Shown piece by piece: positions 2,504-53,631 of a stretch of DNA of 64,000 nucleotides. Positions within the stretch are counted from its first letter, which is position 1; each line of letters starts with the position of its first letter. The notes under the pieces are model-generated. The model saw nothing but the letters and a program-made list of their open reading frames with translations. It was not told the DNA's origin and did no database searches. This DNA is from Rikenellaceae bacterium (GTDB lineage Bacteria; Bacteroidota; Bacteroidia; Bacteroidales; UBA932): positions 10,542-74,541 of the forward strand of contig CAAGIL010000170.1 of assembly GCA_900769905.1 (NCBI GenBank), given 5' to 3'. The translations under genes and the position numbers were made by a program.

Positions 2504-3808
2504 CTACAGCGGAATTGATACGCCGAGAAGGAAGGAGTAAATCGTATCGTAGTAGTTGGAAGTGGCTGAGGACAAACTGTCCGTCAAGTTCCGGCGATAG
2601 TTGTATGGAACAATGGACAGATGCGGTTCCAGATAGACTGCCAGCCTGGAGAAAGCATTGTACCGGAGCTGAATGCCCGTGCTGAGACCCAGGTACTGGC
2701 GCTTGATGTCATAGCTGTGGTCGTACTTTAGCATCCAGCCGTATTCCGGCCCCAGAAACAGAGGGAGAGAGATGTATTTCTTGATATCCTTAAAGTAATA
2801 CATAGGATCGAACATTACTTCTCCCCGCAAGCCAAAGTAGTAGGAAAACTTGTTCACGGACCCCACAAGCCTTTTCCATACATCGCGGGAATAGAAAACG
2901 GACATCCTGACCGACACCGGCCCGGAAAGGGGGATACCTAGGGCAACGCTTGCCGCTTCCCGGGAGGAAGGAAGAAAGCCTACTGTAGAGGCGACCAGAT
3001 CGGATGCCTGGAAGGCAAAGCCGGCGGATACATCCAGTGACAGGCCGCGGCTGCCGATTTCACTGATAAACTGCTTGAAGCTCGGGATGCCGCCGGAAGG
3101 GAGGCGGAATACGAGGCCTGAAGAGATTCCGAATCCGTTGTCATTACTCTGCCAACTCACATTATTGTAGCCATCCAGCCCATCCGTATAAAATGAAATG
3201 AACGGTTCAAGGAAGACATCCAGCATTTTGTTTATCTGGAAGTTGACATCAAAGCCCAGGCGTATATGCCCTGACATATACCATTCGCCGTCAGTATTGG
3301 ACAAATCGAAGCCGACAGCTTCAAGAGTCGAAACGGAAACGGTTCTGGATGAGCGGTAACCGCTCAAATATGAGCTGATGTCAAAGTGATGCATAGCTTC
3401 GATGCCTCCTCCGGAAACCTTTGAGCCGTCCACATTGCGGCGGAAAGACATTCCGGAAAGACCAAGGGATATGGAATTGTAACGGTCGAAGGCCTTCCCG
3501 ACTTCCAATCCTCCTATGCCGCCCCACGAAAACGAAGAATAGTCCCGTTTGGCAAGCTGAAAGGCACCAAAATTCAACTTCAGATACAGATTGTCCATAA
3601 AACTGTTGTTGACGAAGGGCTCGTCCTTGGGACGGTAACGTTTCTGAAGGCGATATTCCAGGGCATTGAACCCCCTTGAGGCGGCAAGTGAATCCTGAAC
3701 TGTCTTGACGGAATCCTGAACTGTCGCAACACCGGGAGAGGACTCCGTCGGCATCGCCACGGAGAGAAAGCAGGAAAGTATATAAGTGCTGAGTAGTGAC
3801 ATAATCAA
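2504..3808 (-). CDS. Putative outer-membrane beta-barrel protein (last gene of the pilus operon)
   Basis: A 434-aa ORF with an N-terminal signal-like hydrophobic stretch. It is Gly/Ser/Tyr/Phe-rich with alternating hydrophobic patterns typical of OM beta-strands. Its start overlaps the upstream stop by 4 nt. No family was recognised. Confidence 0.5.
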   Translation of the reverse strand: MIMSLLSTYILSCFLSVAMPTESSPGVATVQDSVKTVQDSLAASRGFNALEYRLQKRYRPKDEPFVNNSFMDNLYLKLNFGAFQLAKRDYSSFSWGGIGGLEVGKAFDRYNSISLGLSGMSFRRNVDGSKVSGGGIEAMHHFDISSYLSGYRSSRTVSVSTLEAVGFDLSNTDGEWYMSGHIRLGFDVNFQINKMLDVFLEPFISFYTDGLDGYNNVSWQSNDNGFGISSGLVFRLPSGGIPSFKQFISEIGSRGLSLDVSAGFAFQASDLVASTVGFLPSSREAASVALGIPLSGPVSVRMSVFYSRDVWKRLVGSVNKFSYYFGLRGEVMFDPMYYFKDIKKYISLPLFLGPEYGWMLKYDHSYDIKRQYLGLSTGIQLRYNAFSRLAVYLEPHLSIVPYNYRRNLTDSLSSATSNYYDTIYSFLLGVSIPL

Positions 3809-6054
3809 GGATTGTTATAACGGTCAAGTGCTGATTTGAAGATGTATTCCACAATGTCTCCATCACCGGCGGCTATATCTATATAGGATTTGTCTTTCTG
3901 GAAACAGGAAAGCAGATAATCCTCACTTACTATATCGTCCATAAAATCTCCGCCTCTGGCAGCCTTGCGCCCATAGATGACGGACCACAGGTAATCGGTC
4001 AGCGGGTCATTGGGGTCAAGTTCCGCCATTGCCTCCTCTGCCATCGCATCATAGCTTTTTGTGTTCATCGCAAGACTCAACACCACCTTGTTCCGTGGCG
4101 AACTCGCCGATACATTTTCGAAAACCTTTCTCGCCCGGGCTTTCTCCTCCGGGGTGTCGCCCCCTTTGTAATAACCTCCCAGACATAGGGCGAAGGATGT
4201 CACAAGGGCATTCTTCTCATTGTCACCGAGGATGTTGGTGAGCTGTCCTGCCTTGCGGAAGTTATTGTCCATCACATACATAATCATCTGATTGGCAACA
4301 ACTGCCTCCGGATTGATTATATCATAGCCGTCCCCGCCGAACCTCCTCCTCTGGAAATCAGTCCTCGGAGTAGCCAAATCTATGAACTGCCCGAGCAGGG
4401 TTGTGTCACAGACTCCGCGGGCAATATATGACTCGGCAAGATTGCAGGCAGCCAGAATCCACGGCTTGCCGTTCGACATTTCAGATTCTTTATAAGCTCT
4501 CAGATACAGTTTTTCCAGCTCAAGCGGGTCTTTGACCATATTGAAAAGATGCCAGTATTCATACAGGGCAAATTGTTTCCGTCCGCTCCTGTAGTCCTCA
4601 TCGTTTTGATAGCGGTCAAGGATTTCTGCAGGGGTAAGTTCCCTGTATAAGTCGTACTTGAATGAATAGTTTACGGACCGGAGCTTAGGAAGGTATAATG
4701 AAATCACGCTCTTGTAGAACGGAAGCGAGCGTATTCTTTCCCATTGGCGGTCCTGGCCTCCGGGATACTTTTCCACTATGTCCCTAATAGCCTTCGCCTC
4801 GGTTTTCAGCGAGTCTGCCTCCAGCAGGTCGGCAACGTCAGACCACGGGGCAACTTCTGCCTTTGTGGTTATGTAAATCTTGTTCTTGTTCGGAATGATT
4901 GCAGTAATCTGTCCGAGGATATATTCCATCCTGCGCTTTGCCAGAGCAAGGTTGGAAGCGTATGATCCGTCAGGGGATGCAATTCCGACAATGTGAAACT
5001 CCTTCAGCTGGGAACCTTCTCCGTGGATGATGTCCAGCAGGGCCTGTTTGACCGAATCTATCTGACGGAGGCCAAGTGTGTCCTCATCAGAAAGGACTGC
5101 CTGCCCGACCTTGAAGGTAAGGGACATGCTTCCGTCTGCACCTCTTTTCTCCCTGTTTGGTCTTTCGACATAGTCATTAGGGTTGAGATGGTAGGGGGCC
5201 ATTGAATATTCCAGAAATCTGAGCGGCCTCCTCAGACGGGACGATGCAAGGAAGTGGTCTTTCTCGAAATAGGTTATGTTGTAATCTTCCATTGAAATGA
5301 TTCCCTTCACCTGATAGTAGCGTGAAGGGTCTTCAATGTAGATTGTGTCAGCCCAGTTGACGCTCTGACTCTCCGCAGTCAGAGTATCTTTGCTGACAAA
5401 TGGAGTAAGGGGGTCATTGTCGGAGGAATATCCCATCAGGCGCAACTGGGTCAATCGGTACTCCAAACCGTCCATTACGGTCGGCTTCAGGAACCGGAGC
5501 GTGTCCCCGGTGTTGCCGTCCAGCAGCATAGGCTGAACTATCATTCTCGCATTGGTCTTTCCAGAATTGGCCGGCAAACTTATGGTGCACCTGCTCTTGA
5601 GGTAGTTGCCTTCAATTTCGCCCTGTGGGTCCAGCACGCCCACAACGTCCCTGACGGCAGTCACGGTGGAGGTGTTGATGTAGTTTCCCATCTCGATGCG
5701 GACATTGATTTCCATTCTGAAATTGACGGGTTCAAGGAGAGCTTCTTTCATCTCGGCCTTGAAAATCAGGGCGCCGGTCTCCGCCACTGGAATCTCATAG
5801 TATCCGTTGTCGTCAGGATGGGCCTCAGCATCCGGTATCACGATACTGTTTTCATCCCCGTCCATCTGTTTTTTTACGTCCTGGGCTGCTGCAACGGTGT
5901 TGAATGCATAGATATTTACGACCACCTGCTGCAAGTCAATTGGCTTGCCTGTGGTCTTGTCGAGAATTCGGCCGCTCACTCTCTTCAGGTCCTGTGAATG
6001 GCAGGGGAGAAGGGACAGAAGTGCCAATATTATGCATAAACAGCGTTGCTTCAT
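3805..6054 (-). CDS. Large secreted protein with a central OmpA-like peptidoglycan-binding motif and a helical C-terminal region
   Basis: The N-terminus MKQRCLCIILALLSLLPC reads as a signal peptide. The segment HIVGIASPDGSYASNLALAKRRMEYIL matches the OmpA/MotB GxTDxxG...N..LS..RA pattern. Stop and start overlap both neighbours. Confidence 0.6.
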   Translation of the reverse strand: MKQRCLCIILALLSLLPCHSQDLKRVSGRILDKTTGKPIDLQQVVVNIYAFNTVAAAQDVKKQMDGDENSIVIPDAEAHPDDNGYYEIPVAETGALIFKAEMKEALLEPVNFRMEINVRIEMGNYINTSTVTAVRDVVGVLDPQGEIEGNYLKSRCTISLPANSGKTNARMIVQPMLLDGNTGDTLRFLKPTVMDGLEYRLTQLRLMGYSSDNDPLTPFVSKDTLTAESQSVNWADTIYIEDPSRYYQVKGIISMEDYNITYFEKDHFLASSRLRRPLRFLEYSMAPYHLNPNDYVERPNREKRGADGSMSLTFKVGQAVLSDEDTLGLRQIDSVKQALLDIIHGEGSQLKEFHIVGIASPDGSYASNLALAKRRMEYILGQITAIIPNKNKIYITTKAEVAPWSDVADLLEADSLKTEAKAIRDIVEKYPGGQDRQWERIRSLPFYKSVISLYLPKLRSVNYSFKYDLYRELTPAEILDRYQNDEDYRSGRKQFALYEYWHLFNMVKDPLELEKLYLRAYKESEMSNGKPWILAACNLAESYIARGVCDTTLLGQFIDLATPRTDFQRRRFGGDGYDIINPEAVVANQMIMYVMDNNFRKAGQLTNILGDNEKNALVTSFALCLGGYYKGGDTPEEKARARKVFENVSASSPRNKVVLSLAMNTKSYDAMAEEAMAELDPNDPLTDYLWSVIYGRKAARGGDFMDDIVSEDYLLSCFQKDKSYIDIAAGDGDIVEYIFKSALDRYNNP

Positions 6055-10076: not shown

Positions 10077-11147
10077 CTAAACCTCTACCTCAATTGTTTC
10101 CTCGGAATCAAACCAGGAGTCCACGCCTTCACTGTCGCCCTCCGAAACGAATGAGCCTTTCCCGATAACCAGTGTCACTGGAATATCTAGCGTCGCTTGT
10201 TCCTTTGTTATCTTGTATCCTCTCCCATTCTGGGCCGGAGACATCAGCCCGGCTGAGACAATCAGGTCGTAAAGGTTGATTGCCGGGTACAGATATTTCG
10301 TTTTCTCTCCATAGCTCGCGCTTACTCTCAGGCGCAAAATCCCGCTTCCGAAATACAACTTGGATGATTCAGGAGGGAATATGCCCAAAATGTTGAAAGA
10401 AGCCGAATAAGTGGAGTCGTCAGGGTCGGACGATGCAGACATCGGAAAAATAACCCTCCCGAGGTCTTTCTGCTCTACCGTTCCGGCAAACAGTGATACC
10501 GATGATGGAATCCCGGAAAGTTCTCCCACCACCTCATTCAGAGTTACCCCTTCTTCCGTGAGTATATTTACCCTTAAGTTCAGATTGAGAACAAGAGAAG
10601 TCAAGTTGATTGTAAAATCATTCGCGACAGTGTCGGATACCTGACATTTGCCCAAAGCAAAACAGAATGCTTCCGGCTGGCGGAGATAAGGAATGTCCGT
10701 GTTGAAGTCCTTTGCTCCCTGAGGCATCAATGGAGACAGTTCTTCTTCGGAGAGTTTGAGCAGACCGGCGCTGAAATCCTCCAGCGGGATATCGGATTCC
10801 GAAATGAAATCCGATGGCCAATCTATTTTCACGGCATCATCATCGCAGGTGAAGGCAAGGAAGATATAATTGCCGAATTTGACAATATGTTCTTCTGTCG
10901 TGCCGGAATAGAATTCGCCCTTAGGATTGAGCCTGTAGCCGTATTTTACGGGTTCCTCCTCAGTATCCGTGGTATTCACGGCATTCATTGCAACATATAC
11001 CGTATCCTGAGGGGAGACCCCTTCAGGCCATTCCACAGAAAAAGATATGCTGGCGGATTCCGGACTGTCCTCTGGAACAATCCTTGGTTCGAGCATCACA
11101 CAGGAAACCAGGCAGGCTGCAAACGATATCAGGGTAAATTTTTTCAT
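10077..11147 (-). CDS. FimB/Mfa2-like fimbrial anchor or accessory lipoprotein
   Basis: The start is taken at the internal ATG (MKKFTLISFAACLVSC, lipobox). The 63-codon upstream extension in the track has no signal peptide and overlaps the upstream gene. The ATG overlaps the upstream TGA (ATGA). Size and position are those of an Mfa2-type subunit. Confidence 0.55.
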   Translation of the reverse strand: MKKFTLISFAACLVSCVMLEPRIVPEDSPESASISFSVEWPEGVSPQDTVYVAMNAVNTTDTEEEPVKYGYRLNPKGEFYSGTTEEHIVKFGNYIFLAFTCDDDAVKIDWPSDFISESDIPLEDFSAGLLKLSEEELSPLMPQGAKDFNTDIPYLRQPEAFCFALGKCQVSDTVANDFTINLTSLVLNLNLRVNILTEEGVTLNEVVGELSGIPSSVSLFAGTVEQKDLGRVIFPMSASSDPDDSTYSASFNILGIFPPESSKLYFGSGILRLRVSASYGEKTKYLYPAINLYDLIVSAGLMSPAQNGRGYKITKEQATLDIPVTLVIGKGSFVSEGDSEGVDSWFDSEETIEVEV

Positions 11148-11943
11148 AGTGCAGCCTCCTGTTCTTTCTTCTTTTCCTTTGCGGCTGCGCGTGCGGCTTC
11201 CTTTGCGGCTGCCCGCTCCCGCCGTCTGGCTACCCTTTCCGGATCTTCCTTCTTGTATTTGTCTTTGATGGACAAGGTTCTGAACACGAAACTTGCCCTC
11301 AACTCCGACAATATGGGATATGGAATCACGCGCCAATGCCCGGAGTCATTCGGAAGAATGACATAATCGGTCTCGGTGCTGTTCATCCGGTAGCAGTCGT
11401 AGCGGCTTACTCCGTAGCCGAGAGAGGCTCCAATTTCGAAGTCAATGCAGAATTTTTTGAAGGTGTAGAGCGGAAAATCGTAGCCGTATGAGGCTCCTAT
11501 TCCGAACAGGAGTCCCTGGCGGCCCGTTGGGGACATCTTTACTGAGAATGAACCTCCGTGCAGGTAGCCTCCAACATAAAAGGCCCCGTTGGAAAAGAAC
11601 TTTATCGGCGATTCCTTCTGCCGGTACCACCATCGGCATTCGGATCTGAATTCCAGAAGATTGAACACTGTCACAGGAGCAAGAGTGTGCCAGGTGTCCG
11701 GATTGTATTTTGCTGAAAGGGAAAGAGTCAGACGGTTGTACGGAGAGTCCGTCAAATCATACTCTGCACCAATGTTGGGAATTGTGCAAAGCAGCTCTAA
11801 CGCATTGATTTTTAGGCCGAGTCTCCCCCCCCTATCGGATTGGCAGAGGTGGGCGCTTGAGCCATCAATGCGTCAGTACCGGATGCCAAAACAACAAAAA
11901 AAATCAAGACATCCGTTAGTGCGTGCCTGACAATATGAGTCAT
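11144..11943 (-). pseudogene. DUF3575-family OM protein (copy 1), out of frame at a G8 tract and possibly phase-variable
   Basis: The DUF3575 body at 11144..11755 has no ATG and no signal peptide. A 43-codon ORF at 11812..11943 encodes a good signal peptide (MTHIVRHALTDVLIFFVVLASGTDALMAQAP...). It runs into GGGGGGGG at 11825..11832 and is in the -1 frame relative to the body. One extra G would fuse the two frames. Confidence 0.55.
11825..11832. repeat. Homopolymeric C8 tract (G8 on the coding strand), the only such tract in the window
   Basis: Seen directly in the sequence. It lies in the 5' coding region of the first pilus-operon gene. An A8/T8 tract at 11896..11903 lies in the same signal-peptide coding region. 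Confidence 0.9.
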
Positions 11944-11970: not shown

Positions 11971-11978
11971 CAAATATA
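11971..11978 (-). promoter_or_regulatory. Candidate Bacteroidetes -7 element (TATATTTG) for the pilus operon
   Basis: The minus strand reads TATATTTG 27 nt upstream of the 11943 ATG. It lies just downstream of the GH3 terminator. Confidence 0.35.
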
Positions 11979-12041
11979 GCGAATTCTTCGTTAAAATAAA
12001 ACGATTGTAAACTGATTTTCCAAGCCAAACTCACAGGCACG

Positions 12042-12088
12042 AAAAAAAGAGGATGCATTCCGGGTCTCATGACGGGAATGCATCCTCA
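12042..12088 (-). terminator. Rho-independent terminator of the PUL operon (after GH3)
   Basis: On the minus strand, GAGGATGCATTCC-loop-GGAATGCATCCTC is followed by a T7 run. Confidence 0.65.
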
Positions 12089-36712: not shown

Positions 36713-36753
36713 GCAAGATACTTTTTGTTTTATCATAAATAATTGTTACCTTT

Positions 36754-36788
36754 GCGACCCCTATTTTGTGTAGGGATCGCAATTTTTT
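36754..36788 (+). terminator. Rho-independent terminator directly after frdC
   Basis: GCGACCCCT-loop-AGGGATCGC (one mismatch) is followed by a T6 run. Confidence 0.6.
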
Positions 36789-36815
36789 AGTATTAACTAT
36801 TTAAAGATCAAGACA

Positions 36816-37268
36816 GTGGACACACAAAGCTACAAGACAGTATCGCTGAACAAGGCGACTGTGGACAAGAAGTGGGTTGTCATTGACGCGACAGATCTCG
36901 CGCTTGGTCGTCTCGCTTCGCGCGTTGCTCTTGTCCTTCGCGGCAAGACCAAGCCGGGCTACACCCCTCACGTTGACTGTGGTGACAACGTTATCGTAGT
37001 CAATGCCGAGAAGGTTTCACTCGGTGGCAAGAAGATGACCGATCGTGTTTATACCCGTTACACCGGATATCCTGGTGGACAGAGGTTTACAACACCGAAG
37101 GAGATCCTCGCCAATAGGCCTGAGGAACTTGTCAGGAGAGCAGTTAAGGGTATGCTCCCTAAGACCCGTCTTGGTGACGACCTTCTCGGAAACCTGTTCG
37201 TTTACGCAGGTCCTGAGCACAAGCACCAGGCACAGAACCCTACAGTTATCAAGTTGGATGAAATTTAA
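36816..37268 (+). CDS. rplM: 50S ribosomal protein L13 (GTG start)
   Basis: The product aligns with L13 (WVVIDATDLALGRLAS...YTPHVD). Confidence 0.95.
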   Translation: MDTQSYKTVSLNKATVDKKWVVIDATDLALGRLASRVALVLRGKTKPGYTPHVDCGDNVIVVNAEKVSLGGKKMTDRVYTRYTGYPGGQRFTTPKEILANRPEELVRRAVKGMLPKTRLGDDLLGNLFVYAGPEHKHQAQNPTVIKLDEI

Positions 37269-37277
37269 ACAGAGCAA

Positions 37278-52903: not shown

Positions 52904-53509
52904 CTATTTTGCATTAAGATTGTTAAGTATCCTGTCGATGTAGGACAATATCTCTTCCTTCCCTGCACCGGTTTTGGAAGAGGAGCAGAGAACTTCCGGT
53001 AACTCCTCCCATTGCTCCATAAGAACCCTGGAGTTGCGTTCGAGCCGCGCAGCCAGCACATTCGGGCCCTGCTTCTCGCACTTGGTCATGATAATGCTGA
53101 ACGGGATGCCGTGCTCTCCGAGCTCGCTGATGAAGTCTATGTCTATGCGCCCTATGTCGTGGCGGGAGTCCACCAGAACAAAAAGCATCACAAGATCTTC
53201 CGACCCTGTGATGTAATCCCTGATAATCTCTGCGATCTGCTGCTTCCCTTCCCGCCCGAGCTTGGCGTAGCCGTAGCCCGGGAGGTCCACAAGATACCAG
53301 CTGTCATTTATGAGGAAATGATTTACGAGCTTGGTCTTTCCCGGAGTGGAGGATGTCATGGCAAGCTTTTCGTTGCCGCATAACATATTGATAAGCGACG
53401 ACTTGCCGACATTGGACCGGCCTATGAAAGCAAATTCCGGCAGGCGTCTCTTCGGTTTCCCGGCCGCCTTGGTGCTGCTGCCTGCAAATCTGGCTTCAGA
53501 GATCTTCAT
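52904..53509 (-). CDS. engB: Ribosome-biogenesis GTP-binding protein YsxC/EngB
   Basis: The start is taken at MKISEARF. The G1 box is GRSNVGKSS. Confidence 0.85.
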   Translation of the reverse strand: MKISEARFAGSSTKAAGKPKRRLPEFAFIGRSNVGKSSLINMLCGNEKLAMTSSTPGKTKLVNHFLINDSWYLVDLPGYGYAKLGREGKQQIAEIIRDYITGSEDLVMLFVLVDSRHDIGRIDIDFISELGEHGIPFSIIMTKCEKQGPNVLAARLERNSRVLMEQWEELPEVLCSSSKTGAGKEEILSYIDRILNNLNAK

Positions 53510-53631
53510 ATAACAAGAAACAAATGCAGATGTTAATTCTTTGCAAATATAGCAAATCTTTGCCATTTTTTGTAATTTTGCAAGAACGGAAAAGGCTTGG
53601 CCTTTTTCAGGACCAATATTGACCTTGACGT

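Follow-up and report, generated by a model that had tools for sequence, protein, structure and literature searches.

In a 64,000-nucleotide (nt) stretch of DNA from a Rikenellaceae bacterium (GenBank assembly GCA_900769905.1, contig CAAGIL010000170.1, positions 10,542 to 74,541; the whole stretch is called the window here), the first gene of a type V pilus-like operon, which encodes a protein of the DUF3575 family, is split between two reading frames by a run of eight G residues. Related public contigs carry the same gene with the run at different lengths, in frame (ON) or out of frame (OFF), and in each of two related lineages the tract has changed length repeatedly between strains that are otherwise nearly identical. 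We interpret the tract as a slipped-strand contingency switch, present in the window in its OFF (-1) state, and give this reading a probability of about three in four. An earlier note, made from the letters of the window, had proposed such a switch.

Read on the minus strand, the site is ...CCG ATA GGG GGG GGA GAC TCG GCC TAA, the G8 corresponding to a plus-strand C8 at 11825-11832. An open reading frame (ORF) of 43 codons, MTHIVRHALTDVLIFFVVLASGTDALMAQAPTSANPIGGGDSA, begins at the ATG at 11943 and closes at the TAA at 11814-11812; its N-terminus is identical to that of the intact 266-amino-acid (aa) proteins P0033 and P0001. The body of the DUF3575 protein lies in another frame and is given by gene callers as a 203-aa ORF (11755-11144) with a TTG start, the first in-frame ATG being at 11536. 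Both the sequence and the ORF and frame checks bear out the earlier note's claim that G8 splits the head gene of the pilus operon, and the 43-codon ORF does run through G8 to a stop; the distance of five codons that had been given for this stop does not hold, as three sense codons (D-S-A) follow the codon that closes the tract. In silico edits of tract length agree with the claim that one extra G or two fewer would restore the frame: G9 or G6 gives one continuous protein, of 266 or 265 aa, and G7 fails to do so. The tract is also, as had been stated, unique in the window, in which the C8 is the sole G/C run of seven or more. Shorter G/C runs number 221 (length 4), 20 (length 5), 1 (length 6) and 0 (length 7), and extrapolation of this decay gives an expectation of about 0.01-0.02 runs of length 8 per 64 kb. 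The rest of the window is made up of tightly packed, long, uninterrupted ORFs, with no second split gene.

A protein search with the fused sequence returned 28 clusters, in which the exact G9-fused protein (P0033, 266 aa, 32 contigs) and the exact truncated ORF of the window (P0032, 203 aa, 36 contigs) are both present; together with the occurrence of in-frame and out-of-frame states on identical haplotypes, this supports the assignment of the window's G8 to the OFF state. For every allele listed, there is a 266-aa form and a 203/204-aa form (P0031/P0038, P0033/P0032, P0035/P0034, P0040/P0036, P0003 and P0043/P0039 and P0042, P0029/P0044). Among the listed cluster members, about 133 contigs are full-length and about 88 short, that is, about 40% OFF. 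For the analysis of the DNA itself, 71 public contigs were fetched, starting from roughly equal numbers of ON and OFF proteins, and 67 of them, with the window, make up a set of 68 loci with a tract. Eight length states are found in this set (G7, G8, G9, G10, G11, G7T, G8T and G9T), plus one adjacent AG duplication. The lineage of the window, at 95.6-99.7% nucleotide identity to it, includes 27 G8T and 3 G9 loci in the ON state and, in the OFF state, 18 G9T, 6 G7T, 2 G8 (the window and L006) and 1 G10. The second lineage, at about 84% nucleotide identity, includes 3 ON loci, all G9, and OFF loci with G8 (3), G7 (1), G10 (1), G11 (1) and G9 followed by the AG duplication (2). Tract length therefore does vary across independent assemblies of related genomes, over G7-G11 and G7T-G9T, when compared as the earlier note had advised. 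That note had also considered that orthologs might prove intact with no homopolymer at this position; close relatives in both lineages all retain it. The second G8 locus, L006, comes from a distinct strain that mismatches the window at 18 positions in 6.6 kb, and this makes a one-off assembly error in the window unlikely.

All 34 of the fetched contigs that encode the short (203/204-aa) form were read as DNA, and 33 of them are frameshifted at or beside the tract; in the remaining one, L043, the tract region is degraded and unreadable. This contig (937 nt, coverage 2.9) has an A/T-rich tract region (…ATTAAAAAAAAATTAGCCTAAAAATCAA) and many G-to-A/T differences toward its end, and its degraded tract is probably a low-coverage artefact. 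The two loci of the second lineage with the AG duplication (L035 and L036) are out of frame through a duplication placed right after an intact G9 (GGGGGGGGGAGAGAC), the G length being unchanged. In protein P0041 (3 contigs), Met replaces Ile before the glycines (ANPMGGGR), which implies, if the codons are as the protein suggests, a change of ATA to ATG and a G run longer by one residue yet in frame. Forms of 240 aa (P0037 and P0002) were considered as signs of a second switch at a T8 run in the signal-peptide region; this was rejected, since an intact ATG, the T8 and an in-frame tract are present in the DNA and the 240-aa forms are thus merely alternative start calls. DNA-pattern scans of GTDB representative genomes and JGI metagenomes with the tract plus its flanks gave no match, and a protein-guided scan of GTDB genomes recovered just the 84%-identity lineage (L026, G9, ON). 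The contig names of the relatives bear the labels GAIO21 and MUNK18, and those of a more distant ortholog (62% identity) bear XIAO16 and 'pig.gut.metagenome'; these labels suggest pig faeces as the source of the relatives.

How often the tract has changed was assessed in 49 full-length loci, for which 250 nt upstream and 2,400 nt downstream of the tract (2,650 nt) could be compared. Pairs of loci with no difference in these flanks (0 of 2,650 nt) differ in the tract: L007 (G9T) and L028 (G8T), L045 (G9T) and L053 (G7T), and L048 and L051. One coding haplotype occurs with G8T in nine loci, G9T in four and G7T in one, and another with G9T in seven and G7T in three. On a neighbour-joining tree of the 49 loci, built with the tract masked, parsimony counts at least 17 state changes at the tract and at least 10 changes between ON and OFF; each of the 571 other variable columns requires at most 6 changes, and common variants average 2.4. 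The tract is the only frameshifting indel in the coding DNA of these 2,650 nt. The T8 run, to which the earlier note had drawn attention as lying in the same signal-peptide region, is indeed present, 64 nt upstream of the tract, but the relevance suggested for it did not hold: T8 and three A6 runs are invariant across the 49 loci, the site reads T8 wherever it is covered in the window's lineage, and in the second lineage the run is absent. It was accordingly rejected as a second variable tract and serves, being invariant, as an internal control outside the switch.

All 51 coding sequences that were normalised for tract length are intact at 266 codons. The ratio of nonsynonymous to synonymous divergence (dN/dS) is 0.03-0.09 within the window's lineage, comparisons that involve OFF alleles included, and 0.10 between the lineages, at a dS of 0.71. 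The DUF3575 gene is under purifying selection and is not decaying. GGG is the rarest glycine codon in the window (10.2% of 1,211), and the four other Gly-Gly-Gly stretches encoded there contain zero GGG codons; the tract is not an accident of codon usage, and it persists in two lineages whose synonymous divergence is close to saturation. At the tract site, the 62% ortholog reads GGA GTT GAC AGA (G-V-D-R), with no tract, and Asp40, which is replaced by Gly in the tract lineages, is nearly invariant in the family. By these alignments, the tract is a lineage-specific innovation. Of the 15 members listed for the cluster of the 62% ortholog, 12 are 261 aa long, and none is cut short at its 5' end to about 200 aa.

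The G9-fused protein matches Pfam DUF3575 (PF12099) with E = 1.1e-18 and 67.7 bits, at a cut-off of 21.1. An AlphaFold model of it, computed from a 26-sequence alignment (mean predicted local distance difference test score 73), has an N-terminal helix at residues 2-21, a disordered linker at 22-38 that ends at the tract-encoded glycines, about 10 strands across residues 42-222 and a charged C-terminal helix at 235-265; the tract thus sits between the predicted signal peptide and the first β-strand. Foldseek gives weak matches to the small outer-membrane barrels NspA, OmpW, CarO and the N-terminal domain of OprF (best E = 6e-4, template modelling scores 0.3-0.6). The signal-like N-terminus closes with ALMA|QAP, which fits a predicted signal peptidase I site before Gln; cleavage by this peptidase followed by Gln is a pattern usual in Bacteroidota. 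Papers found mention DUF3575 in expression tables, once beside Mfa1-type genes of B. thetaiotaomicron.

Under the switch interpretation, slipped-strand mispairing during replication would add a G to the run or drop one from it. In the ON state, a tract unit of 9 nt (G9 or G8T) would encode Gly-Gly-Gly and allow synthesis of a 266-aa precursor of a small outer-membrane β-barrel. Gain or loss of one or two nt would lead to a stop after 43 or about 62 codons and leave the barrel with no start codon or signal peptide, the window's G8 (-1) giving a 43-aa product and the +1 states a stop after about 62 codons. The start codon of the following gene overlaps the DUF3575 stop (ATGA), so that the early stop, about 660 nt upstream of this overlap, may lower the expression of the pilus genes behind it as well, by lost coupling or by polarity. 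An ATGA start/stop overlap is the arrangement typical of translational coupling, and this 4-nt overlap recurs in every related locus as well as in the 62% ortholog. A position near the 5' end of the first gene in a surface-structure operon is typical of contingency genes. We infer that the changes of the tract are reversible within a lineage and frequent enough for phase variation, that the switch is selected for, and that the OFF state lowers expression of the coupled downstream lipoprotein and pilins.

Several points weigh against this interpretation. All of the loci are consensus contigs, several of them of low coverage (2.8-5x in their names), and some of the calls could be consensus errors at G homopolymers, for which the invariant T8 is an imperfect control. 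Lengths of G8-G9 stand at the short end for fast switching where mismatch repair is present. The main protein cluster is represented by 15 of its 42 members, those listed, and the ratio of ON to OFF among the 68 loci is not a census, because ON and OFF proteins were sampled about equally.

Recurrent frameshifts of the kind described would also be produced by a passive mutational hotspot in a dispensable gene, in which they persist by drift or mild benefit as recurrent pseudogenisation. The data do show recurrent change rather than reversal, about 40% of the listed contigs are OFF, and the second DUF3575 paralog in the operon could give redundancy. Pseudogenisation is at odds, nevertheless, with OFF alleles that carry no further lesions (51 of 51 normalised sequences intact) and with a dN/dS of 0.03-0.10 in comparisons that include them, and it does not lead one to expect a tract of the rarest glycine codon to be kept in two lineages at a dS of about 0.7, or +1 and -1 OFF states to occur beside ON on one haplotype, as back-and-forth slippage yields; we regard the explanation as improbable. 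Lower still do we place a sequencing or assembly error, according to which the G8 of the window, and perhaps other out-of-frame lengths, would be miscalled from a tract that is truly in frame. Such an error would have to have recurred as G8 in the distinct strain L006, and as out-of-frame lengths across three pipelines as judged by contig name (NODE_, k141_ and Logan) and at least three sample series. Homopolymers are well known for such errors, and the coverage of some contigs is very low (L001 2.8x, L002 5x), but an out-of-frame contig also exists at 11.5x (L047), the OFF share of listed contigs is far beyond the rate of consensus errors, the T8 in the same gene does not vary, and no other gene of the window is split.

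If the tract were instead a recoding site, the out-of-frame alleles would yield full-length protein by transcriptional slippage or ribosomal frameshifting. Long homopolymers can in general make RNA polymerase slip, and out-of-frame alleles are common here; recoding would be expected to come with a fixed out-of-frame arrangement, and instead most alleles are in frame and lengths scatter to both sides. Efficient slippage on runs of G8-G10 is not known to us, and we consider this explanation very unlikely, although low-level leakiness at out-of-frame alleles may occur. A further candidate, intragenic inversion of the 54-nt segment with the tract, was suggested by 13-nt imperfect inverted repeats around it (arms at 11797-11809 and 11864-11876, 12 of 13 positions complementary) that are conserved in both lineages. 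It was rejected as next to impossible: the opposite orientation occurs in 0 of the 68 loci, both arms are conserved coding sequence (DALMAQ and INALEL), and the tract-less 62% ortholog has a shorter palindrome, AATGCATT, at both sites, so that protein constraint explains the inverted repeat. An invertible promoter was likewise rejected, as the 250 nt upstream of the tract, promoter included, are collinear in 49 of 49 aligned loci; the window has no convincing inverted repeat that brackets the promoter, since the arms of the sole candidate are 11 nt long and one lies within the GH3 gene.

The operon headed by the DUF3575 gene comprises eight genes on the same strand with intergenic gaps of -32 to +49 nt (Table 1). 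Type V pilins are made as lipoprotein precursors, with a signal peptide that has a lipobox Cys; read by eye, lipobox N-termini (LFSC, LSGC, LASC and LVSC) are present in the four genes after DUF3575. The 356-aa product of the second gene has a sub-threshold match to Mfa2 (E = 0.13, 12 bits at a cut-off of 21). Relaxed-threshold Pfam searches gave nothing usable for the 356-, 749- and 432-aa proteins, nor did a PDB sequence search for the 749-aa protein, and NCBIfam gave no name for any operon protein. In the 749-aa ORF (3805-6054, minus strand), for which Pfam, NCBIfam and the PDB gave no match, FHIVGIASPDGSYASNLALAKRRMEYI recalls by eye the OmpA C-terminal peptidoglycan-binding motif; if the likeness is real, the paralog barrel and the 749-aa protein would resemble a split OmpA.

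Table 1. Features of the poly-G tract, the DUF3575 gene and the surrounding operon (window coordinates).
Feature	Position	Strand	Remarks
Poly-G tract, G8	11825..11832	-	Codons 38-40 of the DUF3575 gene; hypervariable site; -1, out of frame
5' fragment of the DUF3575 gene	11812..11943	-	ATG, signal-peptide-like N-terminus, linker, tract, three out-of-frame codons, TAA 11814-11812
DUF3575 body, other frame	11144..11824	-	Predicted β-barrel and charged C-terminal helix; Pfam PF12099, alignment, model
T8 run (plus-strand A8)	11896..11903	-	Part of the predicted signal-peptide sequence; 64 nt upstream of the tract
Second gene, 356-aa predicted lipoprotein (MKKFTLISFAACLVSC...)	10077..11147	-	ATG overlaps the DUF3575 stop (ATGA, 11147-11144)
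Fimbrillin-like lipoprotein Mfa_like_1, 398 aa	8876..10072	-	Pfam PF13149, E = 6e-10; lipobox LFSC
Fimbrillin-like lipoprotein Mfa_like_1, 375 aa	7699..8826	-	Pfam PF13149, E = 7e-14
Fimbrillin-like lipoprotein Mfa_like_1, 352 aa	6628..7686	-	Pfam PF13149, E = 7e-20
Intact DUF3575 paralog, 202 aa	6051..6659	-	PF12099, E = 3e-31; no homopolymer, no charged C-terminal helix
Last two genes of the same-strand cluster, 749 and 432 aa	2504..6054	-	No assigned family
Putative promoter TATATTTG	11971..11978	-	Fits the -7 motif TAnnTTTG; 27 nt upstream of the ATG
Terminator-like hairpin and T7	12042..12087	-	13-bp arms at 12049-12061 and 12075-12087; after the GH3 gene

Upstream of the operon lies a polysaccharide-utilisation locus with SusC-like, SusD-like, esterase, GH3 and hybrid two-component regulator genes, the end of which is marked by the hairpin and T7. 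The promoter candidate fits TAnnTTTG, which we take to be the Bacteroides -7 promoter motif, and TA..TTTG is conserved in the alignment of both lineages. With a hairpin and a conserved -7 match before the ATG, the operon seems to have a putative fixed promoter of its own. The 13-nt loop of the hairpin (12049-12087) has two orientations among strains that are exact reverse complements of each other: 16 loci read GGGTCTCATGACG, and 5, the window among them, read CGTCATGAGACCC; a third variant, GGGTCTCTTGACG, is found in 28 loci, and loop orientation is unlinked to ON or OFF. These variants look like a small loop-flip polymorphism. An intergenic A4/A5 polymorphism in the 12003-12006 region, about 46 nt upstream of the putative -7 box, splits the loci about 25/24 and needs just 3 changes on the tree, as an ordinary inherited variant would.

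In the 62% ortholog, DUF3575 is kept as the head gene of an operon with the same gene order (DUF3575, lipoprotein, three Mfa-like genes, DUF3575 and a 751-aa gene). This operon (L064-L067, from pig gut metagenomes) has a different genomic setting and follows pdxA, RNase H and an AhpC-like gene. The whole operon behaves as a portable module. Elsewhere in the window, a tRNA gene is found at 2221-2294 on the plus strand, just past the end of the pilus-like cluster, and two intergenic gaps of about 570 nt each (36713-37277 and 53062-53631) lack both ATG-start ORFs of at least 90 aa and Rfam matches at the gathering threshold.

A wider scenario combines the parts of the interpretation: a selected switch, the first simple-sequence-repeat phase variation in Bacteroidales, would silence the barrel and the pilins together and so toggle a type V pilus in the pig gut under phage or antibody pressure. 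We offer this combination tentatively and would sooner expect one of its parts to fail than all of them to hold. If it is true, DUF3575 would be a required outer-membrane component of such type V pilus-like operons. Independently of this scenario, the public alleles form a natural ON/OFF series for asking what role DUF3575 barrels play in them. Metagenome surveys of switching in Bacteroidales look for inversions, and a coding homopolymer that toggles a head gene would escape them; recurrent ON and OFF majorities are already visible across many samples, and gene callers label the alleles as 203-aa proteins or pseudogenes, which masks the variation. On this finding, such surveys should look for repeat-length switching too.

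Among known systems, G-run frameshifts in the signal-peptide coding region of Neisseria pilC reportedly give phase variation. The likeness is close, in that a pilus-associated gene has a G run early in its coding sequence, in or beside the signal-peptide part, and gain or loss of one G toggles translation. Neisseria pilC differs in belonging to a type IV pilus of Proteobacteria and in encoding an adhesin and assembly factor, whereas the gene described here encodes a DUF3575 barrel in a type V pilus-like operon of Bacteroidales, has its tract just past the predicted cleavage site, and is known from sequence. One review describes the poly-G contingency genes of Campylobacter jejuni as having tracts of G8-G11 (PMC11868660). 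These genes share with the present tract the type of repeat, the range of lengths, the intragenic frameshift in genes for surface structures and the polymorphism among near-identical isolates; C. jejuni has dozens of them, and here there is one tract in 64 kb. C. jejuni also lacks mismatch repair. Frameshift phase variation in Bordetella pertussis (Stibitz et al. 1989, as cited in PMC11868660) is alike in affecting a coding G/C homopolymer and is described there as reversible. In B. pertussis, the target is a two-component regulator with global effects, whereas here it is a structural outer-membrane protein gene that heads one operon.

Invertible promoters drive phase variation of surface loci in Bacteroidales, including that of the Mfa1-type (type V) fimbriae of Phocaeicola vulgatus (PMC12940148, PMC12632263, PMC11868660). 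Both that locus and ours are type V pilus-like loci of gut Bacteroidales, with stochastic ON/OFF switching there and proposed here; the difference is that in P. vulgatus a promoter inverts between inverted repeats, whereas here the promoter is collinear in all loci and a coding homopolymer varies. The earlier note's remark that homopolymer switching would be unusual for the order agrees with the reviews and the type V pilus study, which describe just invertase-driven switching (PMC12632263, PMC11868660, PMC12940148). For B. fragilis, a C4-to-C5 frameshift has merely been speculated upon (PMC3090145). In the literature found, no case of phase variation through repeats is described for Bacteroides, Bacteroidales or type V pili, an absence that is in itself no proof. 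The slipped-strand mechanism is thus a classical one, and its occurrence in Bacteroidales, at a type V pilus-like operon, appears to be new.

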